From: Candidatus Saccharimonadota bacterium
GTDB lineage: Bacteria > Patescibacteriota > Saccharimonadia > Saccharimonadales > Saccharimonadaceae
Length of the DNA stretch: 64,000 nucleotides
Direction: 5' to 3'
Assembly: GCA_016290315.1 (NCBI GenBank)
Contig: JAEETK010000001.1
Location: forward strand, 83,157-147,156
In this document: positions 34,266-64,000 of the stretch, piece after piece
Layout of the letters: the number at the start of each line of letters is the position of its first letter
Position numbering within the stretch: the first letter of the stretch is position 1
Program-made: the position numbers and the translations under genes
Notes under the pieces: generated by a model
The model's input: the letters and a program-made list of their open reading frames with translations, nothing else
Told to the model about the DNA's origin: nothing
Database searches by the model: none

Positions 34266-34390
34266 CGTACTCATGCTTTATTGCCTCATCTTTTTAGATT
34301 AAATTTAGAGTATTAATTTAATTTGGAGGTAAAAATGAAGTCTGGGCCGTGATTTTTTGATGCTATTTGTAAATAATATTGGAGGTAATT

Positions 34391-35467
34391 GTGAGACATA
34401 TAGAGAAATATGGATTAATATTTAGTTTTTTAATGGCAGTTTTTGTAGCACCGTCAGTTGGTGCGACTAGCGCGAGGGTAGCGGATAATCCAAATAGCGC
34501 GCAATGAATTGGCGTTTCACACAGTATGACTGGTTTAACGAACTCTGCAAATAATAGTTATACATTTAATATAATTCAGGACGAACAGAATCCGGCTATA
34601 GTGGAAAATATGCCGACCGAGCTAGAAATGAATTTTCGCGGTTCGCCAGATGAGAACGGCATAGTTAACGTAACGAGCCAACTCGATATTGGACAATTGG
34701 ATTTTACGGCTTTGGGCGATTATAAGTTTTCAATACGCGAGGTAGCATCTTCCGATGCATCGAATTACCCAATCGATAGTGATGATGAGTTTTTCTTTTA
34801 TGTTAGCGTACGAAATAAATTAGATGAGAATAATCATCCAACTGGCGAGTATATAGCAAGCTTGAGCAGCCAAGTAAAGAATCATGATACTGGCGAAAAA
34901 GAAGATGCGATATTTCAGTCGAGCGCGACTAGAAGCTATGTGCGAGTAACAAATAAAGTGACTGGTAATTTGGCAAATGAAAACGATTATTTCAAGTACC
35001 GAATTGAGTTCGAAAATGCACCAGAAGGTGATGAATATGTAGTTTCTGGACAGGATGCGATAGTAAGTTATAAAGGCGAATCGATTTCGACTGTTAGTAA
35101 AATAGTTGTTGGCCAGGATAACTATATATACCTAAAGCATGGCCAGACGGCAACGATTGGCTTGAATGGAAATTACGATGAATTGCCGATTGGGCTTAAT
35201 TATAGACTCGTTGAGGTTGAGGGGAACGGCTATGCGCAGTATGTTGATGGTGTGGCCGGCGGTACTTCAGCTACGAAGACTGTTACGGTAGATGCGGATA
35301 GTAGCGGAAATATTGTAAGCTTTATTAATCATAAAGAAGGCGATATCTTGACTGGCATAGTAATGAATGTTCTGCCATATTTACTAGCTATTAGCACGAT
35401 CGGCGGTTTAGCGTTGGCATGGAGGGTGATTAAGAAAAAACATAAAGAAACAAAATGCTCAAGATAA
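34391..35467 (+). pseudogene. FctA/Spy0128-like sortase-dependent pilin paralog, interrupted by one in-frame TGA
   Basis: SD GGAGG lies 5 nt before GTG 34391. A 38-aa signal-peptide segment (..FLMAVFVAPSVGATSA..) follows, then TGA at 34505-34507. The same frame continues into the 313-aa track ORF, with GDYKFSIREV..FFFYVSVRN and the C-terminal DILTG, hydrophobic stretch and KKKHK. Confidence 0.7.
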
Positions 35468-35757
35468 GAAACAAGGCGTGGCGAGGGTGGGCGCGCCTGG
35501 TGATGAAAGTATTATTTGTTAGCGGATCAATTTATTTGTTGTTTGGAGTATTATTTGGGGTTGCTCGTGGGGTTGGGGCGTCTGACGGGGAAATGCTACT
35601 GTATTGTAGAATATGCAGACAGTATGTGGCCGGAGATGTCTTATTAATGAGTGATGGGCGTTGTGTTGAATATGGCAATGGCGGCGGTGGGATGGTGGCG
35701 GGAAAGATTATAGCTCAACTAGGCGTGCGGAATTTTACGTATGAAATTAGTGAATAG
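35455..35757 (+). CDS. truncated SipA-like (S26 signal-peptidase-like) protein
   Basis: 100 aa. The N-terminal TM and following segment align by eye with the 169-aa paralog at 53025. The C-terminal half is missing. Confidence 0.45.
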   Translation: MLKIRNKAWRGWARLVMKVLFVSGSIYLLFGVLFGVARGVGASDGEMLLYCRICRQYVAGDVLLMSDGRCVEYGNGGGGMVAGKIIAQLGVRNFTYEISE

Positions 35758-36451
35758 CTTACTAAACTTTATTATGTACGTAGCATTAGCGCCGCTTGTC
35801 TTGGTTAGTTTATACGTGATATATGATAGCTGCAAGGTTTCTAAATCGGCCGCTATAGATGCCTCATTAGTATCATTAGTAAATCAAGATGGAGATGAAG
35901 TTTTTGACGCTTTGGAAGAAGAAAGTGAGTATACAATTGCCTGGTTGCGAATTGAGGGAACTAATATAAATTATCCAGTAGTGAAAGGAAAAGATAATGC
36001 TTGGTTTTTGAATAGAAACTATAGGGGAGAATTTGCGACTGCAGGGAGTCTATTTTTAGATTATAGAAATGAGGGTGATTTTAGTGATGCCTTCTCGATT
36101 ATTTATGGTCACAGGATGGGGAATGGCGAGATGTTTTCTGACATACAAAAATTCAAAAATGACGATTTCTTCAGTGCACACAAAAGGGGGGTATTGAAGC
36201 GGCGAGGTGGCAGTTATGGGTTGGAAATATCTGCTTATGCAGAGGTAAATTCGAAAGACTGAAATATATATAATACCGAAGTGAGTCGCAACAATAATAG
36301 CTTTGCCGTAACGAAGACGATATTTGATAGTGCGATTCATAAGCGCAGTCGCGGGGATAGTGGTCGCTTTATACTGCTATCGACATGTGACGGCGAGAGT
36401 AAGGATAGGCGAGACGTGTTGCTTGTTCGTATAATGGATGACGATAGTTAA
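35741..36451 (+). pseudogene. class B-like sortase paralog, interrupted by one in-frame TGA
   Basis: Residues 1-173 (..NINYPVVKGKDNAWFLNRNY..IIYGHRMGNGEMF..) end at TGA 36260-36262. The same frame continues for 62 codons and encodes LLSTCDGESKDRRDVLLVR, which holds the catalytic Cys and Arg. Confidence 0.7.
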
Positions 36452-55475: not shown

Positions 55476-56036
55476 ATGTATGGACCAACAGATTTAAAGA
55501 AAAATACCCTAATAACTTTGGATGGTCAGCCATATAAAGTGGTGGAATATTCACAAAAAGTAATGGGGCGTGGTGGTAGTATTGTGAATGTGAAGGTTAA
55601 GAACCTAATTACGGGCGCATTATTACCGAAAACCTTCAAAGGTCAGGAAAAAATTGAGCCAGCAGAGGTTGCGAATCAAACGGTGCAGTACCTCTACAAT
55701 GATGGCGAGAAATTCTATTTCATGAATCCTGAGACCTTTAACCAGTATGAGCTTACTGCTGATATGGTTGGCGATGCGAAGGATTTTATGAAAGAAGGCG
55801 AAAACTTCGATATTCAATTTTACAACGATAGTCCGATTAACTTAGTATTGCCAAAGAATGTGTGGCTAGAGGTTACTTATACCGAGAGCGTTGTTAAGGG
55901 TGACACGACGTCTTCTGTACAGAAGGACGCAAAACTTGAAACCGGTGTCGAGGTAAAAGTTCCAGCCTTCATTAAGACTGGCGATGTAATATCTGTCGAC
56001 ACGGAGACCTACGCTTACCGTGAGCGCCAAAAATAG
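55476..56036 (+). CDS. efp: elongation factor P
   Basis: 186 aa with the three-domain EF-P pattern. The tip loop is KVMGRGGS, with R32 at the tip. SD GGAGG lies upstream. Confidence 0.9.
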   Translation: MYGPTDLKKNTLITLDGQPYKVVEYSQKVMGRGGSIVNVKVKNLITGALLPKTFKGQEKIEPAEVANQTVQYLYNDGEKFYFMNPETFNQYELTADMVGDAKDFMKEGENFDIQFYNDSPINLVLPKNVWLEVTYTESVVKGDTTSSVQKDAKLETGVEVKVPAFIKTGDVISVDTETYAYRERQK

Positions 56037-56838
56037 GATCGCGAAAGAAGACAGTAGAGCGGGGAGTGGCTCTGCTGTTTTTGATGTGTCTAAATGGCCG
56101 GTATTGGTTATAGTAGGGCCTACTGCGAGCGGAAAAACTGGTTTAGCAATCGATTTGGCACTAACGCTTTCGGAACGAGGTATTTGTGACTGTGAAATAG
56201 TTTCGGCGGATTCACGCGCGATATATAAAGGAATGGATATTGGTACGGCGAAGCCTATGCTGACGGAGATGAAGGGTGTGCCACACTGGGGCATTGACTT
56301 GGTAGAACCAAATGATCGATTCACGGTTGTTGACTTTTGCAATTATGCGCTCAAGAAAATTGAAGATATACGTAGGAGAGGGCATCTGCCGATAGTTGTG
56401 GGCGGTACAGGACTGTATGTGGATGCGCTAGTCTACGACTACCATTTCAATGATGTTGTGAAAAATAATTATTCAGACAGACAAGAGATGAGTTCGGATT
56501 ATGTAGTATTTGGTATCGATTGGCCGCGCGATGAATTACGGAAACGGTTGCTGATTAGGTCGAATAAATTATTTGCTCAGCCGATTGAGAAAGAGACTCT
56601 TGCGCTGGTAGAGCAATACGGCTGGGATAGTCAAGCAATGAAGTCGGATATTTACCCAATTTGTTGGGAAATGATGCGTGGAAATATTGATCGCGAGGAG
56701 GCGATACGGCTAAATGAGATAGATGATTGGCATTTGGCAAAAAGACAATTAACATGGTTTAAGAGAAATAAGAATATTGTTTGGATAGAGCTGAATGGCG
56801 CTGTTGAGCGTATAATTAATTTTTACTTGTCTAGATAA
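56020..56838 (+). CDS. miaA: tRNA dimethylallyltransferase
   Basis: P-loop VGPTASGKTGLAIDLA, then SADSRAIYKGMDIGTAKP. The start is uncertain; GTG 56020 overlaps the efp end. Confidence 0.85.
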   Translation: MSAKNRIAKEDSRAGSGSAVFDVSKWPVLVIVGPTASGKTGLAIDLALTLSERGICDCEIVSADSRAIYKGMDIGTAKPMLTEMKGVPHWGIDLVEPNDRFTVVDFCNYALKKIEDIRRRGHLPIVVGGTGLYVDALVYDYHFNDVVKNNYSDRQEMSSDYVVFGIDWPRDELRKRLLIRSNKLFAQPIEKETLALVEQYGWDSQAMKSDIYPICWEMMRGNIDREEAIRLNEIDDWHLAKRQLTWFKRNKNIVWIELNGAVERIINFYLSR

Positions 56839-56869
56839 ATTCTAATTCTTTTGTTAATATAGTTATAGG

Positions 56870-57469
56870 ATGAGCAAAGAAAACGCAGTGCCATTAGAAA
56901 AATTGTTTGGTTCAAAAACAAGAGCTAAATTGTTGGGTTTGTTCTTCGAGAATCCAGAAAAATCGTATTATGTGCGAGAGATTACTCGCGTAATAGAAGA
57001 GCAGATAAATTCCGTGAGGCGTGAGCTGACAAACTTAAATGCGTTAGGGCTTGTAAAAATTGAGAACTATGAGAATAAAGTTTATTATTCAGCAAATATG
57101 AAACACCCATTCGCTCGTCCGATGTCAGAAATATTCTCACGAAAAATTGATTCAAAGCAAGACATCGAGGTGCATAAGCCGACTTGGGCAGATTATGTAC
57201 GTCCAGTGGAAAATCTAATACATGGCCTAATTGTTACGAATCGTCTGCCTGGCCAAGAGGGGCTGGACTTGTTGATTATCGGCGATGACTACCAGCGAAA
57301 GTTGACGAGATGGGCGGAAGTAGTGGAGAAGCGCCAGGGCAAGCCGCTTAATTATGCTATCATGAGCCGCGAGGATTATTTATATCGTAAAAGCGTGCGT
57401 GATAGATTCATAGCAGATGTGTGGTCGCTTCGAATTAGTGAAACTTATGATCCAGAAAGAATTCTGTAA
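56870..57469 (+). CDS. winged-helix (ArsR-like) domain protein
   Basis: 199 aa. The N-terminal wHTH is YYVREITRVIEEQINSVRRELTNLNALGLV. The C-terminal domain is unassigned. Confidence 0.5.
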   Translation: MSKENAVPLEKLFGSKTRAKLLGLFFENPEKSYYVREITRVIEEQINSVRRELTNLNALGLVKIENYENKVYYSANMKHPFARPMSEIFSRKIDSKQDIEVHKPTWADYVRPVENLIHGLIVTNRLPGQEGLDLLIIGDDYQRKLTRWAEVVEKRQGKPLNYAIMSREDYLYRKSVRDRFIADVWSLRISETYDPERIL

Positions 57470-57490
57470 ATAGTAGAAGAGGAGTAGAAA

Positions 57491-57940
57491 ATGTTTGAAA
57501 TTGAATTGAAAAATTCTGACGAAATGACGATAAAAGCTAAGGAAAGAGTCGTAAATATTAATGTCGCACAATCGACAATTAATGCTGACTTGAAGGTAGG
57601 CACGATTAGGGGTTCTGGGGAATTTGAGATTGGCGATATTGCAATTGTCGGCACTAGCCTAAAGGATGGCGGCATTATGTATCGCATTGACGTAGATGGC
57701 GTTAAAATTGGTATTGTAGGGAATACTGCTAAAACTGACGACCTCGATAATCTTGGCCCAGTAGATATTCTAGGGACTAGCAACCCAAAGACTGTTCCAA
57801 TTGTTGAGCCGAAGATTGTAATTCCAATGGGCAATATGGACTTTGCAGAGATAAAAGCTTCCGTAAAGACAGAGAAGAAGCTAAAGATTAAGAATGCCAA
57901 TTCGCTGCCGGCCGTAATGGAAGTATGGAAGCTAGATTAG
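57491..57940 (+). CDS. hypothetical protein
   Basis: 149 aa. SD GAGGAG lies upstream. No motif was recognised. Confidence 0.5.
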   Translation: MFEIELKNSDEMTIKAKERVVNINVAQSTINADLKVGTIRGSGEFEIGDIAIVGTSLKDGGIMYRIDVDGVKIGIVGNTAKTDDLDNLGPVDILGTSNPKTVPIVEPKIVIPMGNMDFAEIKASVKTEKKLKIKNANSLPAVMEVWKLD

Positions 57941-58010
57941 ACCCCTTGCGAAAAAGCCAATTATAAGATATAATAGAGCAAGTTTTTAATAATAAGAAGA
58001 GATAATAGAT

Positions 58011-58202
58011 ATGGCAGTATGTGAAATTACCGGCAAAGGCAAGATGTATGGCCACAACGTAAGCTTTTCGCAGCACAAGACTCGTAAAGTTTTTGAGCCA
58101 AATGTCCAGAAGCGTACCTTTATTATTGACGGCCGCAAGGTTAGAATGAAAGTTGCCGCTTCAACGCTTCGCACACTTCGTAAGAAGGGTTTGATTAAGT
58201 AA
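58011..58202 (+). CDS. rpmB: 50S ribosomal protein L28
   Basis: Begins MAVCEITGKGKMYGHNVSFSQHKTRKVFEPNVQ. Confidence 0.92.
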   Translation: MAVCEITGKGKMYGHNVSFSQHKTRKVFEPNVQKRTFIIDGRKVRMKVAASTLRTLRKKGLIK

Positions 58203-58220
58203 GTTTGCCTTTAAATAAAA

Positions 58221-58256
58221 GAGATGGACGCTTGTTGTTAGGGTCCATCTTTTTTG
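58221..58256 (+). terminator. intrinsic terminator after rpmB
   Basis: Stem AGATGGAC / GTCCATCT followed by TTTTTT. Confidence 0.75.
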
Positions 58257-58299
58257 TGCAAGAGCGTAGAGCTCTAAGTGTATATGGTATAATGATTAA

Positions 58300-58983
58300 A
58301 TGAGTGATGATTTAACTCACACCTTGGGGTATGTATTTGCGGTATTTATTATTACTTTGTTTTCGATGATTTTGCATGAGTTAATGCACGGAGTTGTTGC
58401 GCTAAAACTCGGTGATGACACGGCGAAATATAGTGGTCGATTATCTTTAAACCCACTAAAGCATATCGACCCAGTTATGACGATAATGGTGCCTATATTG
58501 CTCGCATTGATGGGTGGGCCGATTTTTGGTGGTGCAAAGCCAGTTCCAATTAATAAATACAAGCTAAAATATCGCGAGTGGGGATTTGCGCTAGTAGCGA
58601 TAGCGGGACCATTGACAAATTTCATATTAGCGCTAGTGTTTTTCTTGGTTGGATATTGGGCGGGGGCATTTCAGGTTCAAAATGGGGAAGTATATTATTC
58701 TGCGGATAGCTTTTGGAGTATGTTCGCGATGCTTGGAGTAAGTATTAATCTTGGTTTTATGCTGTTTAATATTATTCCAATTCCGCCATTAGACGGATCG
58801 CGAGTGCTATATGCGATTGCGCCGGAAGGGGGAGTTCGGGTATTTATGGAGCAAATTGAAAGATATGGTCTATTTGTAGTATATTTCTGCTTGCTATTCT
58901 TTGGTACAGCGCTCAGTTTTTATATGAGTGGCGCAATGAATGCTATTTTACGCTTCTTTACAATGTTAGTTGGTGGAGCGTAG
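58300..58983 (+). CDS. site-2 protease family (M50) membrane metalloprotease
   Basis: HExxH (LHELMHG), polytopic, with the second motif NIIPIPPLDGSRV. TGgTATAAT at 58285-58293 lies 6 nt before the ATG. Confidence 0.8.
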   Translation: MSDDLTHTLGYVFAVFIITLFSMILHELMHGVVALKLGDDTAKYSGRLSLNPLKHIDPVMTIMVPILLALMGGPIFGGAKPVPINKYKLKYREWGFALVAIAGPLTNFILALVFFLVGYWAGAFQVQNGEVYYSADSFWSMFAMLGVSINLGFMLFNIIPIPPLDGSRVLYAIAPEGGVRVFMEQIERYGLFVVYFCLLFFGTALSFYMSGAMNAILRFFTMLVGGA

Positions 58984-59036
58984 TTTCTCCCTGGCGTGTT
59001 TTTGACGGGGGGAGGTTGGCGTGGTAGAATAAAAGT

Positions 59037-59169
59037 AGCCCAAGTTGCGCATGATTTTCCTGAATAATCATGTTTTAGGGAATTCGACATATTAAGCCCG
59101 TGGGTTTAGTATGAGAGAGTTTACCCACCGTGTTCTTATCACGGGAAAACGATGCAACTTGGGTTTTTT
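59037..59169 (+). ncRNA. candidate stand-alone structured small RNA (class unknown)
   Basis: TGgTAGAAT at 59022-59030 lies about 7 nt upstream. The 10-bp closing stem CCCAAGTTGC (59039-59048) / GCAACTTGGG (59154-63) is followed by TTTTTT. Three internal hairpins are present. There is no convincing ORF. Confidence 0.45.
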
Positions 59170-59273
59170 GGTGGTTTATTTAATCTGCAAGTCGCACCGT
59201 GCGCTTCTCGTTGAAGAGTGTGGTTATGTCTGATTTTTTCGGACATTATTTTTACTACAGAGCAGGAGTTGAA

Positions 59274-59408
59274 ATGATGGGGGTTTGCGATTCTGCATCT
59301 GTTAATTCTATAATTTTTAAGTCCAAAAAAATTAGACATTGCCATATGATCGAAAAAGATGCGATGGGAGCCATAAGAGGGGGCGGAAATACTAAATGCT
59401 TGTGGTAA
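59274..59408 (+). CDS. possible small Cys/His-containing protein (44 aa)
   Basis: SD AGGAG lies 5 nt before ATG 59274. The sequence is MMGVCDSASVNSIIFKSKKIRHCHMIEKDAMGAIRGGGNTKCLW. It overlaps an 18-bp inverted repeat, so it may be non-coding. Confidence 0.25.
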   Translation: MMGVCDSASVNSIIFKSKKIRHCHMIEKDAMGAIRGGGNTKCLW

Positions 59409-59419
59409 AATGGTAATAT

Positions 59420-60307
59420 ATGAAACAGCGCATTCGGGTGACGGCGATATGCAAAAAAGACGACGAGGTCTTGCTTTTGAAGCGGGCTGGGGGAAGAATT
59501 GATGGCGGAACGCCGCATTTTGAGCTGCCGCAGGGGAAAATTATCTTTGGCGAGCAGCCAGAAGAGGCTATGACGCGGGTGATTTATGAGAACTTGGGCG
59601 CGCAAGCCGCGAGTGTGCAATTGGTTGACGCAGTGACTTTTACTAACCTGGAGGGAGCGTCCGAATTGGGAAATCTTTATATCGTATATGAGATAAAGAT
59701 TGCGAGCGGTTCAGTAAAAATTACGAACGAACGATATTCGGCCTATAAGTGGATAAAAGTATCGGAAATGGGTTCATTTGCGCTTGAAGAGGCGTCATTG
59801 ATGGTATTGCAGATTACGGCCACAAAGGCAGGGGTGCCGGCGTCGCGAATTATGCAATCGGGCGAAAACGCACAAGTGTTGCCGGCTAGCGATTTTGCGA
59901 CTATCTACACCGATGGCGGCTCACGGGGGAATCCGGGGCCAAGTGGTTTGGGCTATTATATTATCGGCCCGGATGGCAAAGAACTAAAAAGGGGTGGCGA
60001 GTTTTTGGGTTTTTCCAGCTCGCGCTTAGCGGAGTATTATGGCTTGAAAGAAGGGCTAGAGCAGGCAATCGAGTTAGGTTTGAAGAAGGTGCATTTTAAG
60101 AGTGACAGCTTAATGATGGTGAACCAGATGAATGGTGTTTATAAGGTGAAGAATCAGGATTTATTGCAAGTGCACGCAGATGTTTTGAAGTTACTGGAGA
60201 ATCTCGAAGCTTACAGTTTCACGCATGTGCCGAGAAGTATGAATGTAGAGGCCGATGCGGAAGTAAATAAGGTCATCGATGCAAATGTGCGCCGAGGAGC
60301 TTATTAA
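59420..60307 (+). CDS. rnhA: fusion protein: degenerate Nudix-like domain plus RNase HI
   Basis: The C-terminal part has the RNase H DEDD set (IYTDGGSRGNPG, AEYYGL, SDSLMMV, NVEADAE). The N-terminal 150 aa have a Nudix fold pattern with a degenerate box (GEQPEEAMTRVIYENLG). Confidence 0.8.
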   Translation: MKQRIRVTAICKKDDEVLLLKRAGGRIDGGTPHFELPQGKIIFGEQPEEAMTRVIYENLGAQAASVQLVDAVTFTNLEGASELGNLYIVYEIKIASGSVKITNERYSAYKWIKVSEMGSFALEEASLMVLQITATKAGVPASRIMQSGENAQVLPASDFATIYTDGGSRGNPGPSGLGYYIIGPDGKELKRGGEFLGFSSSRLAEYYGLKEGLEQAIELGLKKVHFKSDSLMMVNQMNGVYKVKNQDLLQVHADVLKLLENLEAYSFTHVPRSMNVEADAEVNKVIDANVRRGAY

Positions 60308-60352
60308 TAGATAACATTTGAAAAAGTTGTCAAGGTTTGGTATAATTAACGA

Positions 60353-60711
60353 CAAGCTCGTTGACGTAGTCGCTGGCCTTTTTGGCGAGAGGAAAGTCCG
60401 GGCAGCATAGGACACGGTAGTTGCTAACGGCAACCGCACGCAAGTGTAGGAAAAGTGCCACAGAAACTATACCGCTTCAGTTGTTTAACTGTTGTAAGGG
60501 TGAAAAGAGTGGGGTAAGAGCCCACAGACCTTGGTGGTGACATCGGGGTGGGGTAAACTCTACCGGCTGCAAGGAGACCTAGATACCGTGGTCCGCGGAT
60601 GGTCGCTCACCGCTAGATCCCGTGAGCAATTGCGGGGCTAGATAGATGACTGCGGGCTTTATTATATTTATATAATAAAGTCACAGAACCCGGCTTACTA
60701 TACGAGCTTTT
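60353..60711 (+). ncRNA. rnpB: RNase P RNA, bacterial type A
   Basis: Conserved GAGGAAAGTCCGGGC (60387-60401) and ACAGAACCCGGCTTA (60683-60697) are present. P1 pairs AAGCTCGT with ACGAGCTT. TGgTATAAT at 60338-60346 lies 7 nt upstream. Confidence 0.92.
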
Positions 60712-60861
60712 ATGTCTTGGAATTCCGCGTTTTGATGTGGAATTTTTTGTTGTAAAAATATCTTGAAAAGATGGGGAAGCGCACTAATACCATTGGTCCG
60801 AAAATGCTTATTGGCAGTTGTATACCTTGGAGTGCTAACGCTTTTTGGGGAAAGATTCCAC

Positions 60862-60893
60862 AAAAAATACCCCAGATAGTGGGGTATTTTTTT
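60862..60893. terminator. bidirectional intrinsic terminator (end of the infC-rpmI-rplT operon)
   Basis: Stem ATACCCC / GGGGTAT, flanked by an A-tract and a T-tract. Confidence 0.75.
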
Positions 60894-60902
60894 AGTTCCT
60901 AA

Positions 60903-61244
60903 CTATTTTACGCTTTCGCAGATGGCAGTAAAGGCTTTTGGATCGCTGACGGCAAGTTCGGCAAGAACCTTACGGTCGAGTTCGATACCCTTAGTCTTCA
61001 TACCGTTGATTAGCTTGCTATAGCTGATGCCGTTTTCGCGAGCGGCATTGTTAATGCGAGTAATCCAAAGAGCACGCAAATCGCGTTTGCGATTGCGGCG
61101 ATCGCGGTAGGAATAACGTAATGCTTTGATGACACCTTGCTTCGCAAGACGGAAGCTACGAGTGCGATAATGCTGCATGCCCTTAGCAGCTTTAAGAATC
61201 TTTTTGTGCTTTGCGCGAGCAGCGACTCCACGTTTAACTCTCAT
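60903..61244 (-). CDS. rplT: 50S ribosomal protein L20
   Basis: Begins [20 protein letters not shown], followed by the IF3-L35-L20 pattern. Confidence 0.93.
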
Positions 61245-61246
61245 GA

Positions 61247-61441
61247 TTAAGCTCCTAATGCAGTTTTAACGTTTTTCTTGATTTTGCCCTCGATAATAGC
61301 AGCAGTTTTCATGTTGCGTTTGCGGGCTTTGGACTTTTTGGCAAGGATATGGTTGCCGAAAGCACGTTCGCGGACGATTTTACCAGTTTTGGTAATGCGG
61401 ACGCGTTTGGCGGTACCCTTGTGGGTTTTCATTTTTGGCAT
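61247..61441 (-). CDS. rpmI: 50S ribosomal protein L35
   Basis: Begins [22 protein letters not shown]. Confidence 0.92.
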
Positions 61442-61517
61442 TTGATTACCTTTCCTACTTTAGTTGATATATGGAACGCTTTGGGGTGTAGGGAACCGGT
61501 GGGCGTTATAATGCAAT

Positions 61518-62053
61518 CTATTTATGGCGAACCATAAAGGTAAGATTGCGGCCGCTCATCTGCGATTTGCCGTCTACGACAACTTCGCTGCCGAGTTTTT
61601 CGATGATGCGGTTCATGAGTTCGGTGCCGATTTCTTTGTGGGCCATTTCGCGGCCACGGAAGATAATCATTACTTTGACACGATCGCCGTCATCGAGCAA
61701 TTCGATGATTTTGCGGCATTTTATATTGAGGTCATTTTCCCCAATTTTTAAACCTAGTCTGATTTGTTTGAGTTCGGAGCTTTTAGCTTTTTTCTTGGCG
61801 CGAGATTGCTCCTTCATCTTTTGATACTGGTATTTACCCCAGTCGATGATTTTGACGACGGGCGGGTTAGCGTTAGGGGAAATCTCCACTAAGTCTAAGC
61901 CGGCATCGCGCGCCATAAGCTGAGCGTCGCGACTAGACATGATACCTAACTGCGCGCCGTCGGCGCTGATAACGCGCACCTCCGGATAACGAATATCTCC
62001 ATTAATGCGTGTTTTCGAATTGTTGGTACCGATGGTAGTGCTCCTCAAAAAAT
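61518..62053 (-). CDS. infC: translation initiation factor IF-3
   Basis: RINGDIRYPEVRVI.. and a C-terminal domain are present. The proposed non-AUG start is ATC at 62053-62051, 7 nt after SD GAGGAG (62066-62061). The track's ATG 62102 adds a non-conserved extension with no SD. Confidence 0.85.
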
Positions 62054-62123
62054 TAGACTTTGTTATGGCGACAATTATACCAAAATGCTTTCGAAAATAC
62101 AAGGGGTGCGACCCCAGATATGG

Positions 62124-63647
62124 CTAATGGAGTATTTGAGGACGATACTGGATAGCTTCCGAAATGTGTTCAGTGGTAATTTTAGGGGAGAGCTCTAGGT
62201 CGGCAATGGTCTGAGCAACTTTAATGATTTTAAAATAAGAACGAGCGGATAGACAATAATGGTTTGAAGCTTGATTGAGTAGGTCTTTAGCTGTTTTCGT
62301 AAGGTGGCAGTATCTAGTAATTTCAAGCGAAGAAAGGCGAGAATTGAATCTCGTAAGATCGTGATAGCGTAGGTGTTGTTGCTGAACGGCATCGTGAATC
62401 TGTTTTTGAGCGAGAGTATGCTGCTTAATGCTGATTGTGCGGCTGTGATGGAGGATGCTGTCGGGCTCTTGCAAGACAGGAGTTGTGATATCGATACGGT
62501 CCAAAAGCGGTCCAGATAGTTTTTGACGATATCTCTGAATGGCGCTAGGAGAGCAGGTGCATTCTTTGATATTTGATTGAAAGTAGCCACAGGGGCATGG
62601 GTTCATGGTGGCAATTAGCATAAAGTCGGCAGGATATTGGGTATGTCCATTGATTCGATCGAGTTTAACGAAATGATTCTCGAGCGGTTGCCGAAGTGCC
62701 TCGAGACAATCTCGACGAAATTCTGGCAGCTCGTCGAGATGAAGGACGCCGAGATGAGCGAGGGATATTTCGCCTGGTATGAGATTTGGGCCGCCACCTA
62801 ATAGAGCAGTTAGATTGATACTATGGTGTGGGGCGCGGTATGGGCGTTCCGAGATGATATTTGTACATAGAGAGTGAAGGGAATGGACCTTTGTGATAGC
62901 GATTTGTTCAGTGAGACTTGGTGGCGGCATAAGGCTGGCACTGACTTTGGCAAGCATAGTTTTGCCAGTACCGGGCGGGCCGGTCAAGAGGATATTGTGT
63001 CGCCCTGCGACGGCGATGGTCAGGGCGCGTTTAGCGTGTTCCTGACCGATAACCTCGTCTAAATAAAAATGGTTGTGGTTATCTGTTTGTGTATTTTTAA
63101 CAAAAACAGTGGTGCTCTTGATAGTGGCTTTACCTTTTAGAAATAGTCATAATTCGCGTAGATTATGTGCAGGGATTATGTCGAGATTGTTGTCGGCTAG
63201 AAGGGTGGCTTGAGGCATGTTGCCAGCAGGAATGATGAGCTGCTTAAACCGATATTTTTTGGCGGTTTCGACGATATTTAAAATGCCCTTGATGGGCTTT
63301 AAATTGCCGTCTAAGGACAATTCGCCCACAAACATACGATTCTGTAGGTCTTTTGCCAATAGTTGCTGAGAAAGGCTGAGAATCGCTAGGGTGATAGGCA
63401 GGTCAAGATGAGTGCTATCTTTACGGAGTTCGGCTGGTGCGAGATTAATAATAATTTTGTGCCGAGGAAAGTCGAATAAAGAGTTGCGAAGAGCGGAGCG
63501 GATGCGGTCGCGACTTTCGGTAATCATTTTACCTGGCATACCGACAATATTGAAGGCGGGAAGACCGCGAGTCGCGTCGCCTTCGACCGTAACCAGATGA
63601 CCCGTATAGCCATAGGGGATGGCTGAATAAACTTTTGAGATTTTCAT
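62124..63647 (-). pseudogene. comM: Mg-chelatase-like AAA+ protein ComM/YifB, interrupted by one in-frame TGA
   Basis: The N-terminal Lon-like domain (MKISKVYSAIPYGYTGHLVTVEGD..) runs to TGA at 63149-63147. The same frame continues ..LDEVIGQEHAKRALTIAVAGRHNILLTGPPGTGKTMLA.. to TAG at 62124. Confidence 0.75.
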
Positions 63648-64000
63648 AGCGGAAGTATATAGGGGTGGGGACTTGATTTTAAAGCGTGAGTGCGATAAAA
63701 TTGTAAGTAGTTGGGGCTGACAAAGCTTAGACGGATTATTAACAGTATGCATGCGGATCGATTAACACCGTAAGTGTTTTCATAAATGCAGACAAAACTG
63801 CTAGTAAGCATGTAGCTTATATGCCTGCTTACGCAATGGCCTAAGATATACCTAGGTCTGTTATCCTCGGTGAGATACCATAACTTCGGATAATATCATA
63901 CACATGGTAATAAGGTTGACCTTCTGACAGTGGTTAGCACGAAAATTTAGTCATGACTTCGCTGAGTTTTGTTTATTCCAGCTCTAGTGAGTTTGTCGAG

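Follow-up and report, generated by a model that had tools for sequence, protein, structure and literature searches.

A 64,000-nucleotide stretch of the genome of a Candidatus Saccharimonadota bacterium (contig JAEETK010000001.1, positions 83,157 to 147,156; hereafter the window) carries at 34391–36451 three overlapping genes which, as read from the sequence, form an operon encoding a pilus that is assembled by a sortase and belongs to the streptococcal T-antigen/PitB kind. The first of them, the pilin gene, has a TGA in frame between its signal peptide and the body of the mature protein. This TGA recurs at the same column throughout the orthologous loci of related Saccharibacteria, and two other genes of the window, for a class B sortase and a YifB-type ATPase, have one in-frame TGA each. 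The explanation that we consider best, and quite probable, is that UGA has two roles in this clade, being both a stop and a weakly read tryptophan (Trp) codon, and that the UGA of the pilin gene is under selection and probably throttles the operon.

The pilin frame begins with a GTG codon preceded, at a distance of 5 nucleotides, by the ribosome-binding sequence GGAGG, and reaches the TGA at 34505–34507 after 38 codons. Beyond the TGA the same frame continues for 320 sense codons and ends with TAA (35465–35467). This arrangement, described in an earlier note made from the letters alone, is read directly in the sequence. The N-terminal segment (VRHIEKYGLIFSFLMAVFVAPSVGATSARVADNPNSAQ) has a hydrophobic core and, in a reading of the sequence made with no predictor, a likely signal-peptidase site at ..SVGA; the first 12–13 residues of the mature pilin (TSARVADNPNSAQ) precede the TGA. 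The list of open reading frames (ORFs) obtained with translation table 11 contains only 34526..35467 of this frame, a 313-residue product devoid of export information, just as the earlier note had pointed out. Its proposal that the signal peptide and the mature domain belong to one pilin gene agrees with both the translation and the conserved frame. Its comparison with the uninterrupted pilin paralogue of the window did not hold: the Trp of the paralogue (TVPTWDG), which was thought to lie near the TGA, is placed by the alignment about seven columns upstream of the TGA column.

The AlphaFold2 (AF2) model of the pilin, built on a 19-sequence alignment, has a mean predicted local distance difference test (pLDDT) value of 87.9 and contains helices at residues 4–17 and 321–357. 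Residue 39, encoded by the TGA, opens the first β-strand (residues 39–47), and the block of residues 31–40 has a pLDDT of 92. According to the model, a start at the internal ATG 34526 means the loss of most of this strand and of all export information; no Shine–Dalgarno sequence was found in the sequence upstream of this ATG. A Foldseek search with the model gave 3gle, 3gld, 3b2m, 8f5n and 6bbw as top matches (E-values of 1e-17 to 1e-16, template modelling (TM) score to target of 0.65–0.75). These top matches are the Streptococcus pyogenes major pilin/T-antigen; the next is PitB (4s3l). The tandem immunoglobulin-like (Ig-like) domains of CnaB type are those of a T-antigen/PitB-type pilin. In profile searches, Pfam PF24547 (DUF7601) matches the pilin with an E-value of 2.5e-11, and TIGR03786 (streptococcal pilin isopeptide linkage domain) scores 17.5 bits, which is below its cut-off of 31.85. 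Residues L320, T321 and G322 of the sorting motif, [IV]LTG as a variant of LPXTG, are nearly invariant in two alignments of homologues. The pilin has both a signal peptide and a sorting signal, the signal peptide being included only if the TGA is read through. A basic tail of the form ..KKKQRKTKCS[KR] with a C-terminal Cys occurs in the window (35438–35464) and in loci L005–L007 and L019; the outgroup pilins have no such Cys.

Relatives were collected in a scan of one genome per species, which yielded 37 loci. The pilins of the closest loci, L001–L004, are 96–98% identical to that of the window, and those of L005–L008 and L019 are 51–55% identical; all of these loci are from Saccharibacteria. 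According to the record titles, several of L005–L008 and L019 originate from ruminant gut samples. All nine orthologous loci (pilin 51–98% identical) have TGA at the same pilin column, 12–13 residues past the likely signal-peptidase site. Upstream of it and in the same frame, a signal peptide is encoded in each of the nine, with a start codon and, ahead of that, a ribosome-binding stretch rich in G; in the diverged loci the G-rich stretch stands ahead of ATG starts as ‘..GGN M’. None has a second stop or a frameshift in the pilin frame. ‘TGA AT’ is found unchanged in all 10 sequences, and the following codon is always ATN, being ATG in L005 and L006. Since the same TGA is present in nine separate loci of separate assemblies, an error of the consensus sequence, which had been considered as an option, is excluded.

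Four-fold degenerate sites are saturated among the six lineages compared (mean identity 0.36), and the TGA is among just 13 of the 346 codon columns that are identical in all six. In the outgroup loci (36–42% identity), the residues at the TGA column are T, Q, F, S, L, S, S, D and S, and one database orthologue has K. The comparison with orthologues proposed in the earlier note therefore gives, for the pilin, a conserved TGA in the clade and variable residues in the outgroups. The position tolerates many residues, yet the TGA is kept, and so it is, on the evidence of these alignments, the stop codon itself that is maintained by selection in this clade. Among 20 database orthologues of the pilin (49–97% identity), 19 are predicted without a signal peptide, and six of the proteins begin right after the TGA column.

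The ratios of nonsynonymous to synonymous substitution rates (dN/dS) were computed among the window and L001–L004. They are 0.05–0.14 over the 320 codons that follow the pilin TGA and 0–0.42 over the 38 that precede it, where sites are few; in the upstream segment, four of the five near-identical genomes have no nonsynonymous change at a dS of 0.04–0.18. For the sortase gene, dN/dS is 0.06–0.13 before the TGA and 0.09–0.62 for the 62 codons after it. By these rates, both sides of the TGA are translated. A stop conserved at an otherwise free position, with purifying selection on both flanks and a single frame, is the pattern of programmed readthrough, and the pilin gene shows it.

The two further genes for which the earlier note reported a single in-frame TGA, at 36260 and 63147, were confirmed by translation, and in both cases the comparison with orthologues that it called for returned Trp. 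The sortase, a class B enzyme that has the catalytic His, Cys and Arg and shares the motifs YGHRM, LLSTCDG and RDVLL with its paralogue and relatives, matches TIGR03064 with 156.6 bits (cut-off 153.75) over profile positions 14–234 of 235, the match spanning the TGA. Of its catalytic residues, Cys (LLSTCDG) and Arg are encoded beyond the TGA, and all TGA-bearing lineages have retained them. At this TGA (site B), the window, L001–4, L008 and L019 have TGA, and L006 and L007 have TGG (Trp). Another sortase position, the invariant Trp of the motif IAWL, is W in 23 of the 28 aligned rows and TGA in L006, L007, L017 and L021. These IAWL TGAs are distributed over separate clades; the maximum-likelihood tree needs four changes, at least two of which are forced by well-supported branches. 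At least one in-frame TGA is present in 13 of the 28 sortase rows. The heaviest load seen is that of L008, with four in-frame TGAs in the operon (5980, 6962, 7278 and 7731): the pilin and the short ORF have one each, that of the short ORF falling on a W column, and the sortase has two.

The third gene with a TGA encodes a protein of the yifB/comM type, a Mg-chelatase-like AAA ATPase. It matches TIGR00368 over profile positions 1–499 of 499, across the TGA, with 518.3 bits (cut-off 362.4), as a full-length member of the family does, and has the Pfam matches ChlI, Mg_chelatase and Mg_chelatase_C. In the 23 closest full-length homologues, W occupies the TGA column; in all 120 homologues it is W in 36, F in 77, I in 3, L in 2, Y in 1 and V in 1. 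Five related yifB clusters (70–81% identity) end exactly at ..NLREL, one residue before the TGA column, and no full-length YifB of more than 72% identity is among the matches listed. The residue inserted at UGA is probably Trp, as the sortase and yifB columns suggest. The likely true start of yifB is ATG 63647 (MKISKVYS), as in homologues and N-terminal pieces; the first ATG, 63752, adds 35 residues (63648–63752, minus strand) that are missing from most homologues, a similar extension being found in clusters P0035 and P0183.

Interruptions of this kind are limited to TGA. The 61 called genes of the window (18,979 codons) contain three internal TGA codons, no internal TAA, no internal TAG and 213 TGG codons, which bears out the TGA-only pattern remarked on in the earlier note; TGA makes up 3 of the 216 Trp-type codons (1.4%). 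In read-through controls with TAA and TAG, there was no internal site opposite which relatives had a consistent sense residue; only gene boundaries and shadow frames were returned. For the tally of residues opposite read-through stops, non-overlapping ORFs of at least 100 amino acids (aa) were chosen greedily; wider all-against-all tallies were discarded, since they were dominated by ‘shadow’ ORFs, off-frame or antisense, which align from one relative to another. Within the 37 fetched loci, the in-frame TGAs are confined to the pilus operon. About ten separate interruption events were counted, all of them TGA and never TAG, TAA or an indel.

At the same time, UGA still terminates ordinary genes. 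TGA ends eight of the 61 window genes, including pilT, which has an ATGA overlap onto pilC and covers its profile as far as position 341 of 343; readthrough would make it 71 residues longer. In the window and 24 loci (L005–L029 without L013), 55 of 338 called genes end in TGA, a count that includes a few N-terminal pieces of genes interrupted by a TGA. The distance from these TGAs to the next TAA or TAG has a median of 14 codons (n = 55) and is not shorter than that following terminal TAA or TAG (medians of 17 and 22), with a one-sided Mann–Whitney p of 0.15. The clade does have TGA at conserved Trp columns, as genetic code 4 would require, but UGA has not ceased to be a terminator. Since TGA still ends ordinary genes such as pilT, the code of the clade is, judged from its gene ends, not code 4.

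According to the explanation preferred here, a fraction of ribosomes would read the pilin UGA as sense, most likely as Trp via tRNA-Trp. A UGA-reading tRNA-Trp, perhaps a variant with enhanced UGA reading, would compete with release factor 2 (RF2), and readthrough would give the full pilin precursor with its signal peptide, two Ig-like domains and sorting signal. The same readthrough would take place at sortase position 36260 and yifB position 63147. TGA would be selected against at most sites (213 TGG versus 3 TGA), tolerated in a few genes and maintained in the pilin gene. Given the overlaps among the three genes of the operon, a UGA near the beginning of the first would throttle or gate the translation of the whole pilus operon.

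The base following the stop codon (+4) was compared between the two kinds of TGA. The 18 listed in-frame TGAs are followed by A in 12 cases, C in four, G in two and T in none, versus 14 T among the 55 terminal TGAs; as the 18 are not independent, having about ten origins, the difference is no more than suggestive. The window also contains miaA, the gene of tRNA A37 dimethylallyltransferase (56020–56838, plus strand). The i6A37 modification helps tRNA-Trp to read UGA in E. coli, and miaA may be relevant to the proposed readthrough.

Several points weigh against this explanation. What the sequences show is the codon with its frame and conservation, purifying selection on either side, the agreement of TGA with Trp columns and the use of TGA as a terminator elsewhere. 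Readthrough is most likely, and it is conservation alone that speaks for it; we infer the insertion of Trp, the decoding tRNA, the efficiency and the regulatory purpose as probable. At the pilin column, no relative with a sense codon has Trp, and a Trp there is an extrapolation from the other sites. The 19 database orthologues of the pilin without a signal peptide are seen by their protein ends only and not by the codon, and the same applies to the yifB pieces. ARAGORN found neither a tRNA-Trp nor a tRNA with a UCA anticodon in the window, which has six tRNAs, or in 28 loci. RNAalifold, applied to seven sequences from −15 to +83 nucleotides around the pilin TGA, returned 0 pairs, and a ‘+4 A’ context alone marks the pilin site. 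There is no excess of nearby back-up stops after terminal TGAs, though one might be expected if UGA were generally leaky. Furthermore, a major pilin made at a few percent of the potential of its mRNA would be an odd design.

A bolder form of the explanation, put forward tentatively, is that this gut Saccharibacteria clade with an ambiguous UGA represents an ‘ambiguous intermediate’ on the way to a stop-to-Trp reassignment, the UGAs of the pilus operon acting as a translational gate. Pilus output would then be set by the balance between a UGA-reading tRNA-Trp (or a conditional suppressor) and RF2, and pilus production might thereby follow the nutritional or growth state of the symbiont on its host.

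Four other accounts of the TGAs were weighed against a dual-meaning UGA. A complete switch of UGA to Trp across the genome (code 4), in which RF2 had been lost and the apparent TGA ends were read to the next TAA or TAG, would accommodate the in-frame TGAs at conserved Trp columns in three gene families, and a TAA or TAG does lie within 0–6 codons of five of the eight TGA-ended window genes; a stop-to-Trp reassignment has also been newly reported in the Patescibacteriota lineage (family) JAKLIH01, according to an excerpt of PMC13092985. It is nevertheless improbable, given that TGA is so small a share of the Trp-type codons, that roughly one gene in six among the 338 ends in TGA with no excess of back-up stops, that pilT would be extended well past an almost completely covered profile, and that the in-frame TGAs of the 37 loci keep to one operon. 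Saccharibacteria are, moreover, treated as code 11 in the excerpted text of PMC10746230. Selenocysteine, or the glycine of code 25, at UGA is scarcely credible. UGA is indeed the selenocysteine codon, and the Absconditabacteria and Gracilibacteria of the candidate phyla radiation (CPR) read UGA as Gly, as the same excerpt of PMC10746230 has it, but neither C nor G occurs in any of the 120 homologues at the yifB column, and two sortase Trp columns show W. An Rfam search of the window at the gathering threshold returned only RNase P RNA and the six tRNAs and no selenocysteine insertion sequence (SECIS), and no conserved hairpin follows the TGA. The in-frame TGAs thus correspond neither to Gly columns, as under code 25, nor to a Cys/selenocysteine column accompanied by a SECIS element, as in a selenoprotein.

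If the genes were instead plain pseudogenes, a possibility that the earlier note had kept in view, three unrelated nonsense mutations would have struck a decaying second pilus operon and yifB. The operon does duplicate an intact cluster, in diverged form, and its middle gene falls far short of the paralogue in length; one transition turns TGG into TGA, and pseudogenes accumulate in small symbiont genomes. Set against this are the presence of the TGA in all nine loci, none of which has acquired a second stop or a frameshift at a synonymous divergence that has reached saturation, the conservation of the 100-aa middle ORF in nine loci, an interruption record of some ten events all of one codon, and the ending of the yifB pieces at one column in five clusters of 70–81% identity. 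A dN/dS well under 1 on both sides together with a conserved TGA strongly disfavours decay, and this account is highly improbable. Another proposal, also improbable, is that the locus makes two products: a 38-residue pre-peptide giving a secreted peptide of about 13 residues, and a pilin body translated by re-initiation at AUU/AUA/AUG or at ATG 34526. The invariable ATN after the TGA (ATG in L005 and L006) and the conserved peptide segment ..ADNPxS.. would fit it. A pilin with no signal peptide, however, has no way of reaching the sortase, although its sorting signal has been conserved; none of the downstream starts has a Shine–Dalgarno sequence ahead of it, and every lineage preserves the frame, for which two independent ORFs would have no need. 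In the outgroups, the ..DNxxS.. segment belongs to an uninterrupted pilin. The sortase and yifB sites would also be left unexplained, their downstream parts not being stand-alone proteins.

A horizontal origin from a code-4 donor was considered and rejected: the pilin and sortase homologues of the Bacilli-labelled loci L030–L036 have no in-frame TGA. The TGA positions differ between Saccharibacteria lineages, and inherited relics are therefore unlikely. Two further loci, L013 (binned as Clostridia) and L014, carry a pilin and sortase cluster at 40–42% identity. L013 branches outside the Saccharibacteria sortase clade and L014 groups inside it; L014 may be a mis-binned or unclassified Saccharibacteria contig.

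Table 1. Features of the pilus operon, the yifB gene and the uninterrupted comparator cluster, in window coordinates.
Feature	Position	Strand	Description and basis
Shine–Dalgarno sequence GGAGG	34381..34385	+	Spacer TAATT (5 nucleotides), then GTG 34391–34393; direct sequence reading
Pilin N-terminal segment	34391..34504	+	38 codons; Sec-type signal peptide and start of mature protein
In-frame TGA of pilin	34505..34507	+	Pilin codon 39, next codon ATT; direct sequence reading
Mature pilin body	34508..35467	+	Two Ig-like domains, the second being the DUF7601 match; sorting signal; stop
C-terminal sorting signal	35345..35464	+	[IV]LTG, hydrophobic helix, basic tail KKKHKETKCSR; sequence, alignments and model
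100-aa ORF	35455..35757	+	Overlaps both neighbours, SipA-like operon position; short relative of the paralogous signal peptidase I
Class B sortase gene	35741..36451	+	One in-frame TGA; TIGR03064 match across TGA
In-frame TGA of sortase, site B	36260..36262	+	Context ..NSKD-TGA-NIYN..; TGG in two relatives
yifB/comM-type Mg-chelatase-like AAA ATPase gene	62124..63752	−	One in-frame TGA; TIGR00368 and Pfam
In-frame TGA of yifB	63147..63149	−	Context ..NLREL-TGA-LFLKGK..; homologue column is W
Comparator cluster with no interruption	51965..54310	+	Pilin 343 aa, signal peptidase I 169 aa, class B sortase 257 aa

The genes of the pilus operon overlap at both junctions, 35455 preceding 35467 and 35741 preceding 35757. 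The middle gene, the 100-aa ORF, is 34% identical to the product of 53025–53531, a protein recognized by TIGR02227 (signal peptidase I); searches of Pfam and NCBIfam gave no match for the ORF. Its length is about 100 aa in nine loci (L001–L008 and L019), and its dN/dS is 0–0.26. It is without the C-terminal half of the 169-aa signal peptidase I paralogue and without part of the segment around ..SMNGRIN... SipA is a helper of streptococcal pili, and by analogy the product of the 100-aa ORF may be a non-catalytic helper of a similar kind.

The interrupted trio is 28–34% identical to the intact paralogous trio. Directly upstream of the intact cluster lies a 1934-aa ORF (46068–51872, plus strand). 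It contains 17 PARCEL repeats and matches VWA/sortase targets weakly, and its product may be a tip adhesin or another substrate of the sortase of the intact cluster. GC skew, in 2-kb bins, is 0.16–0.35 over 1–46000 and 54000–64000 and about 0–0.07 at 46–54 kb, the stretch that contains both the gene of the 1934-aa surface protein and the intact pilus cluster. This collapse of the skew may mark foreign or recently rearranged DNA. A bacterial class A RNase P RNA (60354–60713, plus strand, 247.8 bits) is located between an RNase H/Nudix fusion gene and rplT; the opposite-strand ORFs listed over it are spurious.

The absence of a signal peptide from 19 of the 20 database pilins and the ending of the yifB pieces at the same residue arise because Saccharibacteria are annotated with the standard code, and the databases file these pilins, sortases and YifB proteins as truncated or split. 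In excerpts of the literature on Saccharibacteria with code 4, readthrough or UGA/tryptophan/stop codon, no description of in-frame UGA was found; PMC5370408 and PMC13278184 contain nothing that bears on the matter, and Saccharibacteria do not figure in the KACI preprint. What is most likely new here, as far as sequence comparison can tell, is a conserved and operon-concentrated UGA readthrough, with a UGA of dual meaning, in a standard-code CPR bacterium. If this is true, a sortase-dependent pilus of an episymbiont, likely a host-contact structure, is being missed or called broken, and the clade would provide a natural bacterial example of a codon that is stop and sense at once. It would also bear on how stop reassignments start, by way of an ambiguous intermediate or of codon capture, the same phylum having lineages in which UGA is Gly and others in which it is Trp. 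A selected stop near the 5′ end of an operon would, in addition, be a simple and little-described way to set or switch expression.

Low-level decoding of UGA as Trp occurs in Bacillus subtilis and E. coli. According to excerpts of PMC13092985, a tRNA-Trp(CCA) that has a 4-bp anticodon stem or A9C/G24A is common in standard-code bacteria, and such a tRNA-Trp variant raises UGA readthrough in E. coli. The system described here resembles this natural tRNA-Trp suppression in that UGA stays a terminator, Trp would stand at some in-frame sites, TGA and TGG interchange and there is no RNA element. It is unlike natural suppression in that the UGAs are fixed across lineages at 50% protein divergence and concentrated in one operon, and in that one UGA occupies a non-Trp column, apparently selected as a stop. 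With the table 4 code of Mycoplasmatales, several insect endosymbionts and JAKLIH01 (as excerpted from PMC13092985), it has in common TGA at conserved Trp positions and a small-genome, host-dependent bacterium, here of the CPR; unlike under table 4, TGA here ends about one gene in six and is only a small fraction of Trp-type codons. The homonymous UGA of Condylostoma magnum and Blastocrithidia, according to the same excerpts of PMC13092985, likewise means Trp inside genes and stop at their ends. Those organisms are eukaryotes with frequent in-frame UGA and altered eRF1 and tRNA, whereas in-frame UGA is rare here.

A parallel for a conserved leaky stop comes from a phage. Programmed readthrough of a stop can give two products or hold the yield at a fixed low level, and in phage Q-beta the UGA between coat and A1 is read in this way by tRNA-Trp. 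The pilin UGA is similarly conserved and presumably leaky, with purifying selection on both sides and Trp likely inserted; unlike that of Q-beta, it stands near the 5′ end, the terminated product being a signal peptide plus 12–13 residues, and it belongs to a chromosomal, bacterial gene for a secreted pilus subunit. As for the pilus, T-antigen (Spy0128/FctA) and PitB pili are assembled by a sortase of class B type, helped by the signal-peptidase-like SipA/LepA. The operon in the window shares with them the two-Ig-domain pilin fold and the trio of pilin, signal-peptidase-like protein and class B sortase; it differs in an identity of only 16–17%, in an [IV]LTG motif instead of the typical xPxTG, in a middle protein of 100 aa and in its Saccharibacterium host.

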